This document shows positions 1 to 4,261 of a stretch of 4,261 nucleotides of DNA, piece after piece. The notes beneath the pieces are model-generated. The model saw nothing but the letters and a program-made list of their open reading frames with translations, had not been told where the DNA came from and did not search any database. The stretch spans positions 1 through 4,261 of IMG/VR virus record IMGVR_UViG_2657245448_000003, one strand, 5' to 3'. The stretch's first letter is position 1, and each line of letters opens with the position of its first letter. Made by a program: the position numbers and the translations under genes. The DNA comes from a virus. Lineage: Duplodnaviria > Heunggongvirae > Uroviricota > Caudoviricetes.

Positions 1-2
1 GG

Positions 3-77
3 TACATGGATATGATGTGTGAAGCGCGTGGCGCGGCGGATCTTGTTTCCTCATCAGCGAGGGAAAGAGGGCTTTAA
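3..77 (+). CDS. Possible 3' end of an upstream gene entering the window (frame 3; ...YMDMMCEARGAADLVSSSARERGL*), unknown product
   Basis: Frame 3 is open from the window edge to TAA at 75-77, and that stop overlaps the ATG of the next gene (TAATG). Only about 24 codons are visible, so this may equally be a short spurious frame. Confidence 0.2.
   Translation, partial: YMDMMCEARGAADLVSSSARERGL
59..71 (+). promoter_or_regulatory. Shine-Dalgarno-like purine run (GAGGGAAAGAGGG) serving the 77..412 gene
   Basis: AGAGGG at 66-71 lies 5 nt upstream of ATG 77-79. Confidence 0.4.
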
Positions 78-412
78 TGAAACGGTTATGTTTGGCGTTA
101 GTTATGATGGTTACTGCTCCGGCGATGGCTGCAATTCAGTGCGGCAACTACACGATGACCGGTGACGGAATGACTGTTATTAACGGTGAAACTGTCACAT
201 CACAGAAGATAAAATTTCTGGGAAAAGATGGTGACTATTCAAACATGAAAATGGACATGGGCCTGATGCCTTCCCGTGATGGTAACAATTACGGCTTTGA
301 GTTTGTGAAACGTAACGGAAAAGCTTTCCTGAACGTCCAGCTGCTGCAGAACAGCATGGACGCGCCGAAAATCATTGGATCTTTCCCGTGTAAAAAAGTG
401 AGCAGCAAGTGA
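77..412 (+). CDS. Small secreted (periplasmic) protein of unknown function, 111 aa, with a cleavable Sec signal peptide
   Basis: ATG start with a good RBS. The N-terminus MKRLCLALVMMVTAPAMA-AIQ has a basic n-region, a hydrophobic core and an AxA signal peptidase I site. The mature part has Cys22 and Cys105 and is rich in G, N, D and K. The context before C22 (A-I-Q-C) does not resemble a lipobox. The stop overlaps the GTG start of the next ORF (GTGA at 409-412). Confidence 0.7.
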   Translation: MKRLCLALVMMVTAPAMAAIQCGNYTMTGDGMTVINGETVTSQKIKFLGKDGDYSNMKMDMGLMPSRDGNNYGFEFVKRNGKAFLNVQLLQNSMDAPKIIGSFPCKKVSSK

Positions 413-921
413 CAGTTGATGATGATCCTTTGAATTCATTTCAAGACCCTGACTTTCAGGAACTTCTCGGCGGAATTGATATTACTCTTGTTATAAGGTT
501 TTTTAATTATTTTTCGCGTTTCGAATATGCGTTAAAAAGAATTAATTTCAAAAAAACTGATCGTAGAAATTATCTAATCGGTGCTGACTGGAGCCGCTAC
601 GCTACTGATGATACGCGGCCTTTATATCCTACTGGAAATAGAAATGTCGATAGGGCAGTTGAGTATCTATGTCAGCAACCTGTGAAGCAGCAGAGGCATG
701 ATTTTTCGTGGGAGGATAAACCTCCAATCGAACCTCATTCTCTTGCTGAAGCATTAAAGCAGATCCCGTATATAAGAAATAATCTCTTTCACGGCGGGAA
801 GTATTTACGTCCCGCCCCCGTTCGTGATGAAAAGTTATTGAAATACTCTATTTATTTGATGCAGTTGTGTTTGATAACTGATAATCAGCTTTCTGAATAC
901 TTTAATACTATCCACCGATAG
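409..921 (+). CDS. AT-rich accessory ORF, 170 aa, hypothetical protein with a HEPN-like R-x4-H motif (IRNNLFHGGKY, codons at 772-801); candidate RNase toxin or abortive-infection protein
   Basis: It is the only long open frame on either strand across 409-921. The GTG start at 409 overlaps the upstream stop (an alternative in-frame TTG is at 430), and there is no in-frame ATG until near the 3' end. From about 481 the composition turns strongly AT-rich, with many AGA, AGG and ATA codons, unlike the flanking genes. R123-N-N-L-F-H128 fits the HEPN consensus R-x(4-6)-H with a polar residue after the Arg. An intrinsic terminator follows the stop. The functional call is inference from the motif only. 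Confidence 0.5.
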   Translation: MTVDDDPLNSFQDPDFQELLGGIDITLVIRFFNYFSRFEYALKRINFKKTDRRNYLIGADWSRYATDDTRPLYPTGNRNVDRAVEYLCQQPVKQQRHDFSWEDKPPIEPHSLAEALKQIPYIRNNLFHGGKYLRPAPVRDEKLLKYSIYLMQLCLITDNQLSEYFNTIHR

Positions 922-937
922 TCATTCTTCATGAGAT

Positions 938-970
938 AAAACCTGCCACCCGGCGGGTTTTTTGCTTTTT
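938..970 (+). terminator. Rho-independent terminator ending the accessory cassette
   Basis: A-tract 938-941; stem CCTGCC (942-947), loop ACCC (948-951), stem GGCGGG (952-957) giving 6 bp including one G-U pair; then TTTTTTGCTTTTT (958-970). It lies 17 nt after the TAG stop at 919-921. Confidence 0.65.
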
Positions 971-974
971 GGAG
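971..974 (+). promoter_or_regulatory. Shine-Dalgarno (GGAG) for the spike gene
   Basis: GGAG sits 7 nt upstream of ATG 982-984. Confidence 0.4.
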
Positions 975-981
975 CCTACCA

Positions 982-1734
982 ATGGCAGTAACTGACCAGA
1001 CCCGCAGTGGCGATCTTGCCGAAACATTTAAATCTGAACGGGAAACAACAAAGAACCAGATCCGTGTCGCCTTGCCTGGCATTATTCAGTCATTCGATCC
1101 TGACGCGGTGACGGCGGTTGTGCAGCCAGCTATCCGGTCAGTTGAAAAGGATAACGACGGTAACCGCATTACCAAAAATTACCCATTGCTGGTGGATGTG
1201 CCAGTGGTATTCCCGCGCGGCGGAGGCTGTACGTTGACTTTTCCGGTAAAAGCTGGGGATGAGTGTCTTGTCGTTTTTGCCGATCGTTGTATTGATTTCT
1301 GGTGGCAGAGCGGCGGGATACAGGAGACGGTTGATGACAGAATGCATGATTTATCGGATGCGTTTTGTATTGTCGGTCCCCAGTCGCAGGCTAGGAAGAT
1401 TAGCGGTATTAATACCAGTGCCACACAGTTGCGTAGTGACGACGGCAGCACCTATTTTGAGCTTAATCCTGATACCAGGAAAATTAAAATTGTCGCTCCG
1501 GGGGGGCTTGATGTGGTTGCCCCCCTGGCTGATTTTTCTGAGAAAGTAACCATTCATGGCCTGTTAACCTGGATGGGGGGCATGGTGGGGTCTGTGGTTT
1601 CTGGTGTGGCTTCAAAAATCACTGGTGCTGTTGAGTTTTTGGGGAGCGTGAAGGCTAACGGCAAGCCAATCGATGATACGCACACTCATGGTGGTGTTCA
1701 GCGCGGTGGAAGCAGTACCGACGGGGTAAACTGA
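982..1734 (+). CDS. Baseplate central spike / baseplate assembly protein (Gp138-N / P2 gpV / Mu gp45-like), 250 aa
   Basis: The N-terminal region (FDPDAVTAVVQPAIRS...YPLLVDVPVVFPRGGGCTLTFPVKAGDECLVVFADRCIDFWW) matches my recollection of the Gp138 N-terminal spike domain. The C-terminal part is Gly/Val-rich and ends with THTH (1678-1689), resembling the metal-binding HxH apex of phage spikes. Position directly upstream of gp46-like and baseplate J-like genes fits. No homology search was run. Confidence 0.8.
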   Translation: MAVTDQTRSGDLAETFKSERETTKNQIRVALPGIIQSFDPDAVTAVVQPAIRSVEKDNDGNRITKNYPLLVDVPVVFPRGGGCTLTFPVKAGDECLVVFADRCIDFWWQSGGIQETVDDRMHDLSDAFCIVGPQSQARKISGINTSATQLRSDDGSTYFELNPDTRKIKIVAPGGLDVVAPLADFSEKVTIHGLLTWMGGMVGSVVSGVASKITGAVEFLGSVKANGKPIDDTHTHGGVQRGGSSTDGVN

Positions 1735-2087
1735 TGCGATACAGACGTGAAGACGCCGATGGCGATTACACCTTTGGCAGCGGTGATGACACCTGGCTGA
1801 TTAACTCACCGGAGGCCGTGGCGCAGGCGGTAAAAACGCGATTCGAATTGTGGTATGGGCAATGGTTTCTCGACACCACCGAGGGGACTCCGTGGATCCA
1901 GTCCGTACTCGGTAAGCAGAAGCCGGAAACCTACAACCTGGCGATCCGTAAGCGCATCCTCGAAACGCAGGGCGTTAAATCAATCCTCTCTTTCAATACG
2001 ACGCTGGATACCACGACCCGACGTGTCATGTTTTCCGCTGAAATCGACACTCTTTATGGAATAACGACTGTTACATCGGAGGCGTAA
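1734..2087 (+). CDS. Small baseplate protein (Mu gp46-like / gpW-gp25-like), 117 aa
   Basis: The size and the position between spike and baseplate J match Mu gp46 / P2 gpW. The start overlaps the upstream stop (ATGA at 1732-1736). The assignment rests on synteny and size more than on a recognised motif. Confidence 0.65.
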   Translation: MRYRREDADGDYTFGSGDDTWLINSPEAVAQAVKTRFELWYGQWFLDTTEGTPWIQSVLGKQKPETYNLAIRKRILETQGVKSILSFNTTLDTTTRRVMFSAEIDTLYGITTVTSEA

Positions 2088-3286
2088 TGGCTCTGAACCT
2101 TGATTCTCTCGGTTTATCTGCAAAGGTAACCGCGGAGGGGATCAGTGCGCCTGATTATCAGACGATACTCAGCACCCTGATTAGCTATTTTCAGCAGATT
2201 TATGGCAGTGATGCCTACCTCGAACCGGACAGCAAAGACGGCCAGATGGTGGCTCTGATGGCGCTGGCGATTCATGATGCCAATAATACTGCGATAACTG
2301 TCTACAACTGTTTTTCACCGGCAACCGGCTATGGGGCTGCACTGACCTGTAACGTGAAAATAAATGGTATTTCACGTAAAGGCGCGACGAACTCTACGGT
2401 TGATTTGCTTCTTACAGGAACTGCCGGAACAACCATCATTAATGGCAGCGTGAAAGACAGTAATAATGTGATATGGCGTTTGCCTGCTTCAGTGGTGGTA
2501 GGCGTGGATGGTACAGTGATGGTGACCGCAACATGTTCCGTCAGTGGTGCAGTGGCGGCGCTGGCTGGAACTATCACTGAAATTAATACGCCAACCCGTG
2601 GCTGGGTTTCGGTAACCAATCCTGCTGCAGCCACTGTGGGCACTCCGGCAGAAACTGACGCTGAGTTACGTATCCGCCAGTCGCAAAGTGTTGCGTTGCC
2701 ATCAATAACCCCATTTGAAGCACTGGATGGTGCTGTTTCTAATGTTACCGGTGTAACCCGCCACAAACTCTATGAAAACGATACTGGTTCGGAGGACGGT
2801 AACGGGTTACCGCCACACTCTGTTGCTGTAATTGTGGATGGCGGTGATGTAACGGATATTGCTCAGGCTATCAGAGGGAATAAAGGCCAGGGGACAGCCA
2901 CTCACGGTACAACATCCGTTACGGTTCCGGATAAATACGGCAATCCCCATGTAATCAAATTCTCGCGTTCCAGTGATGTGCCTGTTTATGCCCTGATTAA
3001 ATTAAAAGTTTTTACGGGTTATACCTCACAGATAGGGCAGCAGATCCAGCAGGCTATTTCCGACTATATCAATAGTCTGATGATTGGTGATTCGGTCCTT
3101 TTAAGTCGCATTTACTCACCGGCGAATCTTGGCGTGGTGAGTGGCGGGAATGCACGCTATTACGATATTCAGGAACTGACGATTGGGAAATCCCCGGGGG
3201 CTTTGTCGTCATCAAACATTGATATCAGATACAACGAATCTGCGTCCTGTACCCCGAAAAATATCGTTATAACGGTGGAGTCATGA
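2087..3286 (+). CDS. Baseplate J-like protein (P2 gpJ / Mu gp47 family), 399 aa
   Basis: A 399-aa protein immediately after the gpW-like gene, with the start overlapping the upstream stop (TAATG at 2085-2089) and GGAGG just upstream. Length and composition are consistent with baseplate J wedge proteins. This is a synteny-based call. Confidence 0.8.
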   Translation: MALNLDSLGLSAKVTAEGISAPDYQTILSTLISYFQQIYGSDAYLEPDSKDGQMVALMALAIHDANNTAITVYNCFSPATGYGAALTCNVKINGISRKGATNSTVDLLLTGTAGTTIINGSVKDSNNVIWRLPASVVVGVDGTVMVTATCSVSGAVAALAGTITEINTPTRGWVSVTNPAAATVGTPAETDAELRIRQSQSVALPSITPFEALDGAVSNVTGVTRHKLYENDTGSEDGNGLPPHSVAVIVDGGDVTDIAQAIRGNKGQGTATHGTTSVTVPDKYGNPHVIKFSRSSDVPVYALIKLKVFTGYTSQIGQQIQQAISDYINSLMIGDSVLLSRIYSPANLGVVSGGNARYYDIQELTIGKSPGALSSSNIDIRYNESASCTPKNIVITVES

Positions 3287-3963
3287 GCAAATACACCGAA
3301 CTAATCACGAACTACCACGCCACCAAACCTAAATTTCTTGCGCATGTTGATCTGATGACCCGGCCACTTATTGATGTTGCGGCTGCCACCAGAGGGCTGA
3401 TTAGTGCATTTGATATTGACTCTGCGGTTGGTGTGCAACTTGACATCCTTGGATTGTGGATCGGACGTAGCCGTGTTGTCAGCCAGCCTATCTCAGGTGT
3501 CTATTTCAGCTGGGATACCGACGGGCTTGGATATGATCAGGGGGTATGGCAGGGACCATACGATCCTGATTCAGGATACATGTATCTCAGCGATGAAACT
3601 TATCGTGTCATTCTTAAAGCGAAGATTGCGATTAATAACTGGGACGGACGGAATGATTCGCTTCCGGCAATTCTTGACGCGGCAACAGCAGGATCCGGGC
3701 TGCGAATGCAGATAGTCGATAACCAGGACATGACGATATCGGTCTGGGTCTTTCCTGATACTGATATTTCAGATGTATCGCGTGAGTTAATTGCGGCAAT
3801 TAAACAGGGGTATCTCACAGTAAAAGCCGCCGGGGTATGGGCGGGTGGCATTGAAACACCTTCGGTGGAAACCCCATCGGAAGGCTCAAAATTTTTTGGT
3901 TTTGATATGGATAACGAATTCATCAGTGGTTTTGATGTAGGAGCATGGGGAGTATTACTCTGA
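3283..3963 (+). CDS. Baseplate/tail protein (P2 gpI / Mu gp48-like), 226 aa
   Basis: Follows baseplate J with an ATGA overlap at 3283-3286 and a GGTGGAG RBS upstream. Its place between J and the tail fibre matches gpI/gp48. The stop overlaps the next start (TGATG at 3961-3965). Confidence 0.65.
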   Translation: MSKYTELITNYHATKPKFLAHVDLMTRPLIDVAAATRGLISAFDIDSAVGVQLDILGLWIGRSRVVSQPISGVYFSWDTDGLGYDQGVWQGPYDPDSGYMYLSDETYRVILKAKIAINNWDGRNDSLPAILDAATAGSGLRMQIVDNQDMTISVWVFPDTDISDVSRELIAAIKQGYLTVKAAGVWAGGIETPSVETPSEGSKFFGFDMDNEFISGFDVGAWGVLL

Positions 3964-4261
3964 TGGCGAAAAATGACTTTAAAGCGTTTGCAACGGATCG
4001 AAATGCCAATGTTATATCGCAGGAGGAATGGGAAGCGTTGCCCGCGCTTTTATCTGGATTTACAGCAGGGAAAGCCTCCAGTGCGCAAGTCAATAAGGTT
4101 ATTCGGCAGGCCAGCTTCATTTTTACGGGGGCGAGAACCGATCGGGAAGTTGATGATCATATGCTCGCCGCGCTGGGCTGCATGGCTGTTATCGTCTTCC
4201 AGAGTATCTGGCGCACCAGCAACATACACCACCGGTTCATCGTGCACGACAGGCGCATCTT
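3963..4261 (+). CDS. Tail fibre protein, conserved N-terminal region (MAKNDFKAFATDRNANVISQEEWEALPALLSGFTAGKASSAQVNKVIRQASFI); frame stays open to the window end but is probably not genuine tail fibre beyond about 4124
   Basis: The N-terminal approx. 53 codons look like the conserved N-terminus of enterobacterial prophage tail fibres (recalled pattern ...ASSAQVNKxIRQxxFI...). After about 4122 the same frame uses rare codons (AGA, CGG, AGG, ATA) and gives an atypical peptide, while the opposite strand shows good codon usage. Confidence 0.5.
   Translation, partial: MAKNDFKAFATDRNANVISQEEWEALPALLSGFTAGKASSAQVNKVIRQASFIFTGARTDREVDDHMLAALGCMAVIVFQSIWRTSNIHHRFIVHDRRI
4125..4261 (-). CDS. 3' part of a convergent gene of unknown function running off the window edge (...DAPVVHDEPVVYVAGAPDTLEDDNSHAAQRGEHMIINFPIGSRPR)
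   Basis: The minus-strand frame is open from the window edge and uses typical E. coli codons (CTG, CCG, GAA, GGT, GCG). The six-frame track reports it from a GTG at 4247 running to a stop at 4050, but the frame continues open upstream to 4261. Below about 4125 it overlaps the conserved tail-fibre N-terminus and is probably fortuitous read-through. Confidence 0.3.

Follow-up and report, generated by a model that had tools for sequence, protein, structure and literature searches.

What are a gene for a predicted secreted protein, a gene for a HEPN-like protein and a transcription terminator doing directly in front of the spike gene in the tail operon of a phage? We addressed this question in a window of 4,261 nucleotides, comprising positions 1 to 4,261 of the IMG/VR virus record IMGVR_UViG_2657245448_000003 (Caudoviricetes). 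A preliminary description of this window had reported the cassette, and both ORFs and the hairpin are indeed found in front of the spike gene (Table 1). It had also proposed that the cassette occupies the place expected for hub, tube or sheath genes, either because a moron was inserted into the late operon or because the prophage is degenerate and its upstream tail genes were replaced. Our analysis indicates that the first 981 nucleotides probably span a hotspot for accessory genes, located in the late tail operon of an intact temperate E. coli myovirus of the SEN34-like (Brunovirus-like) type. The order of the elements is hub gene, ORF1, variable cargo, conserved intrinsic terminator and spike gene, and all long ORFs in the ORF list of the window are on the plus strand.

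Tail module and source phage

The window was found at high identity in both bacterial genomes and phage records. Positions 1-4121 are 100% identical in 43 complete E. coli genomes, while positions 1-4120 are present at 99.6-100% identity in three Escherichia phage records and positions 1-3963 at 100% identity in a fourth. These four phage records are 33-43 kb long, and a literature search found no paper on the isolates. SEN34, a Salmonella phage related to this one, is an inducible temperate myovirus (PMC5261728). An Rfam scan identified no RNA family in the window.

We next looked at the genes that precede the window in matching genomes. The hub gene, of which only the 3' end lies in the window, is present at full length in E. 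coli WP3-W18-ESBL-08 (locus L001, positions 19013-20077, 1065 bp). On the 5' side of the window, this locus contains, in order, genes for the antiterminator Q, a holin and a lysozyme, followed by terminase, portal and head genes. Next come genes for a neck terminator, a DUF3383 protein (sheath), a DUF3277 protein (tube) and a tail chaperone, as well as a gene of 1986 bp, the size of a tape-measure gene. The last genes before the window encode a baseplate protein, a plug protein and the hub. Checking the flanking sequence thus placed sheath, tube, tape-measure and hub genes directly upstream in matching genomes. The cassette does not take the place of hub, tube or sheath genes, but lies between the hub and spike genes.

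The presence of a full tail module upstream in 100%-identical genomes also refutes, for this element, the proposal that the prophage is degenerate. Degenerate copies of this phage type do exist, as in E. coli PEC145, where the hub gene is a 5'-truncated pseudogene beside lambda-like early genes, and in the P0014 context an integrase adjoins a partial ORF1; yet a prophage that lost its hub, tube and sheath genes and had the cassette substituted for them is extremely improbable here, as the end of the hub gene is in the window, the tail module is complete in all 100%-identical genomes and the same DNA is found in phage records of the size given above. A tail operon that is interrupted by a low-G+C cassette and its terminator therefore need not signal a defective prophage, which corrects a tempting misreading in annotation.

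Table 1. Features of the window, with positions counted from its first nucleotide.
Feature	Position	Strand	Remarks
Baseplate hub gene, 3' end	1-77	+	100% match to annotated genomes; phrog_196 'baseplate hub', E-value 2.3e-88
ORF1	77-412	+	111 aa
Exchangeable segment (cargo slot)	400-938	.	Last four sense codons and stop of ORF1, all of ORF2, 17 nt beyond
ORF2	409-921	+	170 aa; cargo gene
Codons for R123-N-N-L-F-H128	775-792	+	Rx4H signature of HEPN nucleases
Intrinsic terminator	938-971	+	Right border of the slot; 10-bp GC-rich stem with loop ACCC (938-961), then T run
Ribosome-binding site of spike gene, GGAG	971-974	+	Read from sequence; conserved in alignment of terminator region
Spike gene, membrane-puncturing	982-1734	+	Conserved downstream flank; PF18352 N-terminal domain (E-value 5e-44) and Apex motif
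Wedge or sheath-initiator gene	1734-2087	+	phrog_120
Baseplate J gene	2087-3286	+	
DUF2612 gene	3283-3963	+	
Tail-fibre gene, start only	from 3963	+	

The cargo slot and its borders

To locate the borders of the variable region, we compared the window with SEN34 and with relatives from E. coli, Citrobacter, Pantoea and Enterobacter. On the left, homology breaks off at window positions 391-403. On the right, it resumes at 935-941 in most pairwise comparisons, with single cases at 924 and 966, and many E. coli matches begin at 936-951. These break points are consistent between pairs, and we therefore delimit an exchangeable block of approximately 400-938. The mosaic junctions are at about 399, within the final codons of ORF1, and at about 939, at the foot of the terminator hairpin.

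Base composition is discontinuous as well, as the preliminary description had anticipated. ORF2 has a G+C content of 38.4% and a GC3 of 33.9%, against 49-53% for the baseplate and flanking genes, and the compositional change point on the right side is best fitted at about 940. A model with two change points in G+C was uninformative on the left boundary, where its 2-lnL support interval spans 72-848. An AT-rich trough with a G+C content of 22-30% in 60-bp windows extends from 481 to 580. The sharp drop at about 481, which had been taken for a mosaic boundary, is thus real, but it lies inside ORF2 some 80 bp to the right of the junction and is not a boundary. Across a first set of 37 loci, the G+C content of the slot was lower than that of its flanks in 36.

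This first set consists of four phage records, the E. coli locus described above, a Pantoea locus (L009) and 31 of 36 species-representative genome loci. It was collected through ORF1 and is biased for that reason. A second set, anchored on the hub gene, contains the best 80 IMG/VR loci with a hub protein at least 96% identical, 74 of which include the spike gene, and corrects the bias for close relatives only. In the 37 loci, ORF1 and the spike gene are separated by 29 to 3641 bp, with 38 protein clusters between them. The 74 hub-matched loci have near-identical backbones and 18 slot architectures, with the HEPN cargo in one of them. Adding these loci to the first set (more than 100 loci in total) resulted in approximately 47 protein clusters among 203 slot ORFs. 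ORF2 is present in a single locus out of the 80, while many unrelated genes stand in its place elsewhere, and in one hub-matched locus (L081) the slot is empty and measures 68 bp.

The cargo includes PD-Lambda-1 (E-value 1.4e-82), an Mrr-like nuclease that matches both type IV restriction and ZorD models, YafO toxin pairs, a tRNA_anti-like OB-fold protein, DUF2335 and DUF4236 proteins and an IS256-type transposase. An unannotated two-gene pair is found in roughly half of the close relatives. Beyond these sets, 412 E. coli genomes have related elements with YafO, DUF2335, DUF4282, DUF4236 or other cargo. With conserved flanks and many alternative cargos, known defence systems among them, this position is a phage defence hotspot. 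ORF2 carries the marks of a moron, being absent at the same position in close relatives, distinct in composition and accompanied by a terminator. The proposal of a moron in the late operon thus holds for ORF2 and for the slot, but not for ORF1, as discussed below. Cargo may be swapped by recombination between the conserved 3' end of ORF1 and the terminator and spike leader.

The right border of the slot is formed by the terminator. Its hairpin folds at -19.3 kcal/mol (z = -2.8), which was equalled by none of 200 shuffled sequences. A hairpin of the type AACCCGCC-N4-GGCGGGTTTTTT is located about 40 nt 5' of the spike ATG. Hairpin and T run are present in 32 of the 34 slots over 100 bp in one locus set, and the hairpin is found in 69 of the 74 hub-matched loci regardless of cargo; even the empty slot of L081 has kept it. 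An alignment of 23 diverse copies showed that the stem is maintained, with compensatory changes in three of six consensus pairs. The hairpin is lacking in three distant relatives (L035, L042 and L044) in which cargo and intergenic space are absent as well. We assign the terminator to the slot rather than to ORF2.

ORF1, ORF2 and their expression

Of the 80 hub-matched loci, 75 have ORF1 directly after the hub gene and five lack it. Homologues in the same post-hub position were identified in SEN34, Yersinia phage YP3, Klebsiella phages GZ7 and Mulock, several Klebsiella prophages and E. coli E2348/69. Its GC3 of 0.545 is like that of the backbone (G+C content 45.2%). Because related intact phages (SEN34, YP3, GZ7, Mulock and the Klebsiella prophages) have ORF1 in the same place, it is a resident gene of this phage group and not part of a recent insertion, and the view of ORF1 as an inserted moron has to be given up.

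The ORF1 protein starts with a predicted signal peptide of about 18 residues, read from the sequence, that ends in AMA before an alanine (MKRLCLALVMMVTAPAMA, then A). Two cysteines, C22 and C105, are invariant in the alignment, and the structural model is a predicted eight-stranded beta-barrel (pLDDT 79.5). Searches of Pfam, NCBIfam and PADLOC returned nothing useful for ORF1, and its PHROGs matches were limited to families of unknown function. Across loci whose hub proteins are 96-100% identical, ORF1 identity ranges from 54 to 100%, and two genomes contain tandem ORF1 paralogues. An exported, disulfide-bonded barrel that is highly variable among near-identical phages and sometimes duplicated suggests, at low confidence, a conflict-related periplasmic binder. 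Such a protein would have a periplasmic role, perhaps in exclusion or as a binder of the immunity type, and might keep out incoming relatives whose tape-measure protein has an SLT domain. We rejected ORF1 as a lipoprotein, since no lipobox precedes a cysteine, and as an antitoxin for ORF2, because it is predicted to be exported and accompanies every kind of cargo.

Both genes are translationally coupled to the genes upstream of them. The stop codon of the hub gene (TAA, 75-77) shares bases with the ATG of ORF1 in the sequence TAATG, and the GTG start of ORF2 overlaps the ORF1 stop by 4 nt in the sequence GTGA, an overlap that is retained in a 52%-identical ORF2 homologue from Pseudescherichia. 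The best promoter candidates upstream of ORF1 or ORF2 had 9 of 12 consensus matches, which is no commoner than in shuffled sequence. Because no promoter rose above chance and the genes are coupled to the hub gene, ORF1 and ORF2 may be made only late in lytic growth. Because a gene for a Q-family antiterminator is present in the prophage, the hairpin would be no barrier to late transcription in lytic growth. In a lysogen, the hairpin would stop only Q-independent transcription, which would be the classical moron arrangement.

This coupling, together with the backbone-like GC3 of ORF1 and its place after the hub in most hub-matched loci and in SEN34, YP3 and GZ7, might be taken to mean that both genes are ordinary conserved late genes for virion or assembly factors rather than accessory genes. 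We consider this very unlikely in view of the signal peptide and conserved cysteine pair of ORF1, its variability, its absence from five loci and its tandem paralogues, as well as the presence of ORF2 in only one of the 80 loci and its replacement by unrelated genes. ORF1 would also not be a virion component because it is predicted to be exported, whereas the virion assembles in the cytoplasm.

Returning to the cargo gene, we asked what kind of protein ORF2 encodes. Residues R123, N124, N125, L126, F127, H128 and G129 do not vary among 26 homologues with identities as low as 27%, and the alignment also shows an invariant S36-R37-x-E39 in the first long helix. An Rx4H motif with a polar residue after the arginine is the signature of HEPN nucleases (PMC3710099). 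The AF2 model of ORF2 is confident. Its best fold matches are HEPN RNases, although these matches are weak; those listed are TTHA0636, a Cas13b HEPN domain, two HEPN-MNT toxins, HI0074 and SO_3166. Foldseek found no significant match of the model in the PDB. A profile match to the HEPN region of the CRISPR-associated CARF-HEPN protein 8y7f is centred on RNNLFH and marginal (E-value 0.045), as is the match of Abi_2 to three of the 26 homologues (E-value 0.042). ORF2 itself had no match in Pfam, NCBIfam or PADLOC, and in PHROGs it matched only families of unknown function. ORF2 is quite probably a divergent member of the HEPN superfamily, and it is outside every described HEPN family. That it is instead a helical protein other than a nuclease, in which the Rx4H-like motif arose by chance or is non-catalytic, seems rather unlikely.

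A word-indexed search yielded 27 ORF2 homologues, the 14 closest of which are 49-75% identical. The four of these whose context was examined occupy the same slot in prophages, or remnants of prophages, that are related to this one. When the alignment was used for a full HMMER scan, it detected at least 2392 cluster representatives (50% identity) at E-values up to 1e-3. Most family members are stand-alone proteins of about 165 aa, while a few are fused to DUF6884, for which a search found no functional information. Among 50,697 phage records, those with ORF2 were the four E. coli phages and a Klebsiella siphophage, whose 30%-identical version has a different, moron-like position. Distant homologues were found in one locus with HEPN_AbiV, TIR, RNase_T and an Mrr-helicase, in another with a STAND NTPase and in a third with an XRE-ImmA pair.

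HEPN nucleases work as dimers that pair two Rx4H motifs. ORF2 would form dimers or oligomers and stay inactive as an RNase until a superinfecting phage triggers it; it would then cut RNA and abort the infection, as HepS and Tha do (see below). By analogy with these proteins, ORF2 could act against competing phages as an RNase that, once triggered, aborts their infection, a reading whose chances we consider evenly balanced. No antitoxin or sensor gene is adjacent to ORF2, as its neighbours are ORF1 and the spike gene.

A serious rival, which we nevertheless regard as unlikely, is that ORF2 is produced together with the late proteins and serves lytic growth, as an RNase for counter-defence or host takeover. 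The lack of a separate promoter above chance is consistent with this, and the overlap with ORF1 that is kept in Pseudescherichia implies expression together with the late operon. The degradation of signalling nucleotides by some HEPN domains, as in Csm6, also counts in favour of a lytic role. Conversely, the slot elsewhere holds systems that protect the lysogen, including PD-Lambda-1, the Mrr-like nuclease and the YafO pairs, and distant homologues of ORF2 are found in chromosomal contexts that resemble defence islands. Moreover, where an operon is antiterminated, a terminator would be of use mainly against transcription that is independent of Q.

With abortive infection as the preferred function of ORF2, the parts can be combined into a tentative picture, which we hold to be possible rather than probable. 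ORF2 would found a family of solo-HEPN abortive-infection proteins that is absent from Pfam and PADLOC 2.0, the dock between ORF1 and the terminator would be a dedicated cargo site of SEN34-like phages, and ORF1 would be a diversifying periplasmic exclusion factor. If this is true, the unannotated cargos are a reservoir of new anti-phage systems, for example the two-gene pair mentioned above; such hotspots have repeatedly yielded new anti-phage systems. With the exact flanks, namely the 3' end of ORF1 and the terminator with the spike leader, as a simple anchor, cargo can be mined from hundreds of enterobacterial prophages. The predicted HEPN cargo would be inexpensive to test, as it is a single gene for 170 aa with two obvious predicted catalytic residues.

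Comparison with known systems

Hotspots and morons in late operons are a known kind of locus, whereas this hotspot and its HEPN cargo family appear to be undescribed in searchable sources; no description of this particular hotspot was found in the literature searched. The morons of HK97 and HK022, the Z/fun locus of P2 and the P2/P4 hotspots (Rousset et al. 2022) resemble it in having conserved structural flanks around a hypervariable interior. These loci further share with it a cargo of lower G+C content, a downstream terminator, validated defence systems and toxin-antitoxin genes, and a location in or near the tail cluster. The P2 Z/fun hotspot is located between tail genes, downstream of a baseplate gene (PMC9122126; bioRxiv 10.1101/2024.10.15.618418). 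Unlike the P2 and HK97 cases, the present slot belongs to a SEN34-like lineage with lambda-like early genes and an E217/Pam3-type contractile tail, lies between a hub-adjacent gene for a secreted protein and the spike gene, and scored at chance level when scanned for a promoter of its own.

The predicted barrel of ORF1 resembles in fold the periplasmic beta-barrel inhibitors and immunity proteins PliC/MliC, PhiA and BtaiB (of the T6SS), but this fold is generic and avidins score higher, so that the likeness is a lead only. ORF1 has no sequence similarity to PliC/MliC-type proteins, PhiA or BtaiB, and neither membership of the MliC/PliC sequence families nor their inhibitor loop motifs were found in it.

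Among HEPN proteins, the HEPN-MNT toxins (7ae2, 8xdj and 5yep) and TTHA0636/HI0074 are 10-17% identical to ORF2, which has no Pfam match and no gene for an MNT nucleotidyltransferase antitoxin on either side. HepS ('HEPN Solo'), from prophage Gifsy-1, forms a tetramer without activity until a siphophage tail-tip protein opens it, whereupon it cuts tRNA anticodon loops (PMC13043305). It resembles ORF2, a predicted HEPN protein, in its single domain, its origin from a prophage, where it frequently occurs, and its lack of a partner gene, and its R100-N101 and H105 parallel R123-N124 and H128 of ORF2. HepS (STM14_3211, PDB 9OIK) was not among the matches of ORF2 in a profile search of PDB sequences (E-values up to 10) or in a Foldseek search of the PDB to April 2026, and the resemblance would be functional rather than familial. 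The Gifsy-1 record of strain LT2 contains no ORF with both R100 and H105, so the copy in that strain is probably without HepS.

Tha, from S. aureus prophages, is an RNase that is triggered by minor tail proteins and causes abortive infection (PMC11087260). It resembles ORF2 in being a prophage moron with a HEPN RNase domain, which is predicted in the case of ORF2 and has the motif RNSIMH in Tha. The two differ in size and arrangement: Tha is 301 aa long, has an extra N-terminal region and is controlled by an overlapping antisense transcript and Ith, whereas ORF2 encodes 170 aa and is in sense orientation within the late operon.

Slot contents among relatives

The segment between the 3' end of ORF1, the gene for a secreted 111-aa protein, and the terminator preceding the spike gene is an exchangeable cargo slot, which in the window holds ORF2, predicted to encode a HEPN-type protein. 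In a close relative (L081), the slot was empty (68 bp) and the terminator retained. Three more distant relatives (L035, L042 and L044) possessed neither cargo nor terminator, and their spike gene directly follows ORF1. The most frequent cargo among close relatives was a two-gene pair encoding products of 243-266 aa and 123-153 aa, found in half of the loci with a hub at least 96% identical that include the spike gene (37/74) and also in E. coli E2348/69. Searches of this pair against Pfam and PADLOC returned zero matches.

Variation in ORF1

ORF1 identity ranged from 54% to 100% among loci whose hubs were 96-100% identical. This spread, despite the near-identity of the hub, suggests allele exchange or diversifying selection in ORF1. 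At the DNA level, ORF1 was far less conserved over its signal peptide and the initial ~30 residues of the mature protein than over its C-terminal two thirds; in several relatives, DNA homology was restricted to window positions 1-43 and 179-399, leaving a gap at window 44-178. Serratia aquatilis and Pseudescherichia vulneris have tandem ORF1 paralogues (n = 3).

Degenerate copies and the right end of the window

Truly degenerate copies of the same phage type occur in other loci. The hub gene of E. coli PEC145 survives as a pseudogene truncated at its 5' end and adjoins lambda-like kil/cIII genes; at a second locus, an integrase gene is next to a partial copy of ORF1, after which come an ORF2 homologue and the spike gene. 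At the right end of the window, the prophage tail-fibre gene, represented by its N-terminal part, runs abruptly into part of the core E. coli gene xdhD. Every complete E. coli genome of the collection lacks this junction, which therefore probably reflects misassembly, rearrangement or artificial joining.

Locations of features in the window and in related loci (L-numbers)
Feature	Location
Tail-fibre gene, N-terminal part	window 3963-4120
xdhD part (last ~140 bases)	window 4119-4261
Two-gene pair	L010:5483-6211 + L010:6214-6639; L055:2829-3981; L003:3589-4386
ORF1 tandem paralogues	L036:4458-5801; L041:629-2236
Degenerate copies	L052:1245-1577; L051:2319-5540
Distant ORF2 homologue neighbourhoods	L046:4247-8537; L049:1074-4847; L006:5101-5972
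Slot defence/toxin cargo (PD-Lambda-1, Mrr-like nuclease, YafO)	L040:5362-6585; L032:5399-6244; L028:6346-7400

ORF2 relatives and known defence or toxin genes

The ORF2 HEPN-like family includes fusions to the Pfam domain DUF6884 (proteins P0167 and P0175, 332 and 650 aa), a domain for which we sought functional information and found none. Distant ORF2 homologues neighbour HEPN_AbiV, DUF4268, RNase_T, TIR_2 and Mrr-helicase genes at one locus, stand alongside a 1257-aa STAND NTPase at a second, and lie immediately 3' of an XRE-ImmA (Peptidase_M78) pair at a third. The slot itself is occupied by known defence or toxin genes in other genera: PD-Lambda-1 in Dryocola (E-value of 1.4e-82), an Mrr-like nuclease in Rouxiella and, in Photorhabdus as well as in E. 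coli, a YafO toxin with a partner gene upstream.
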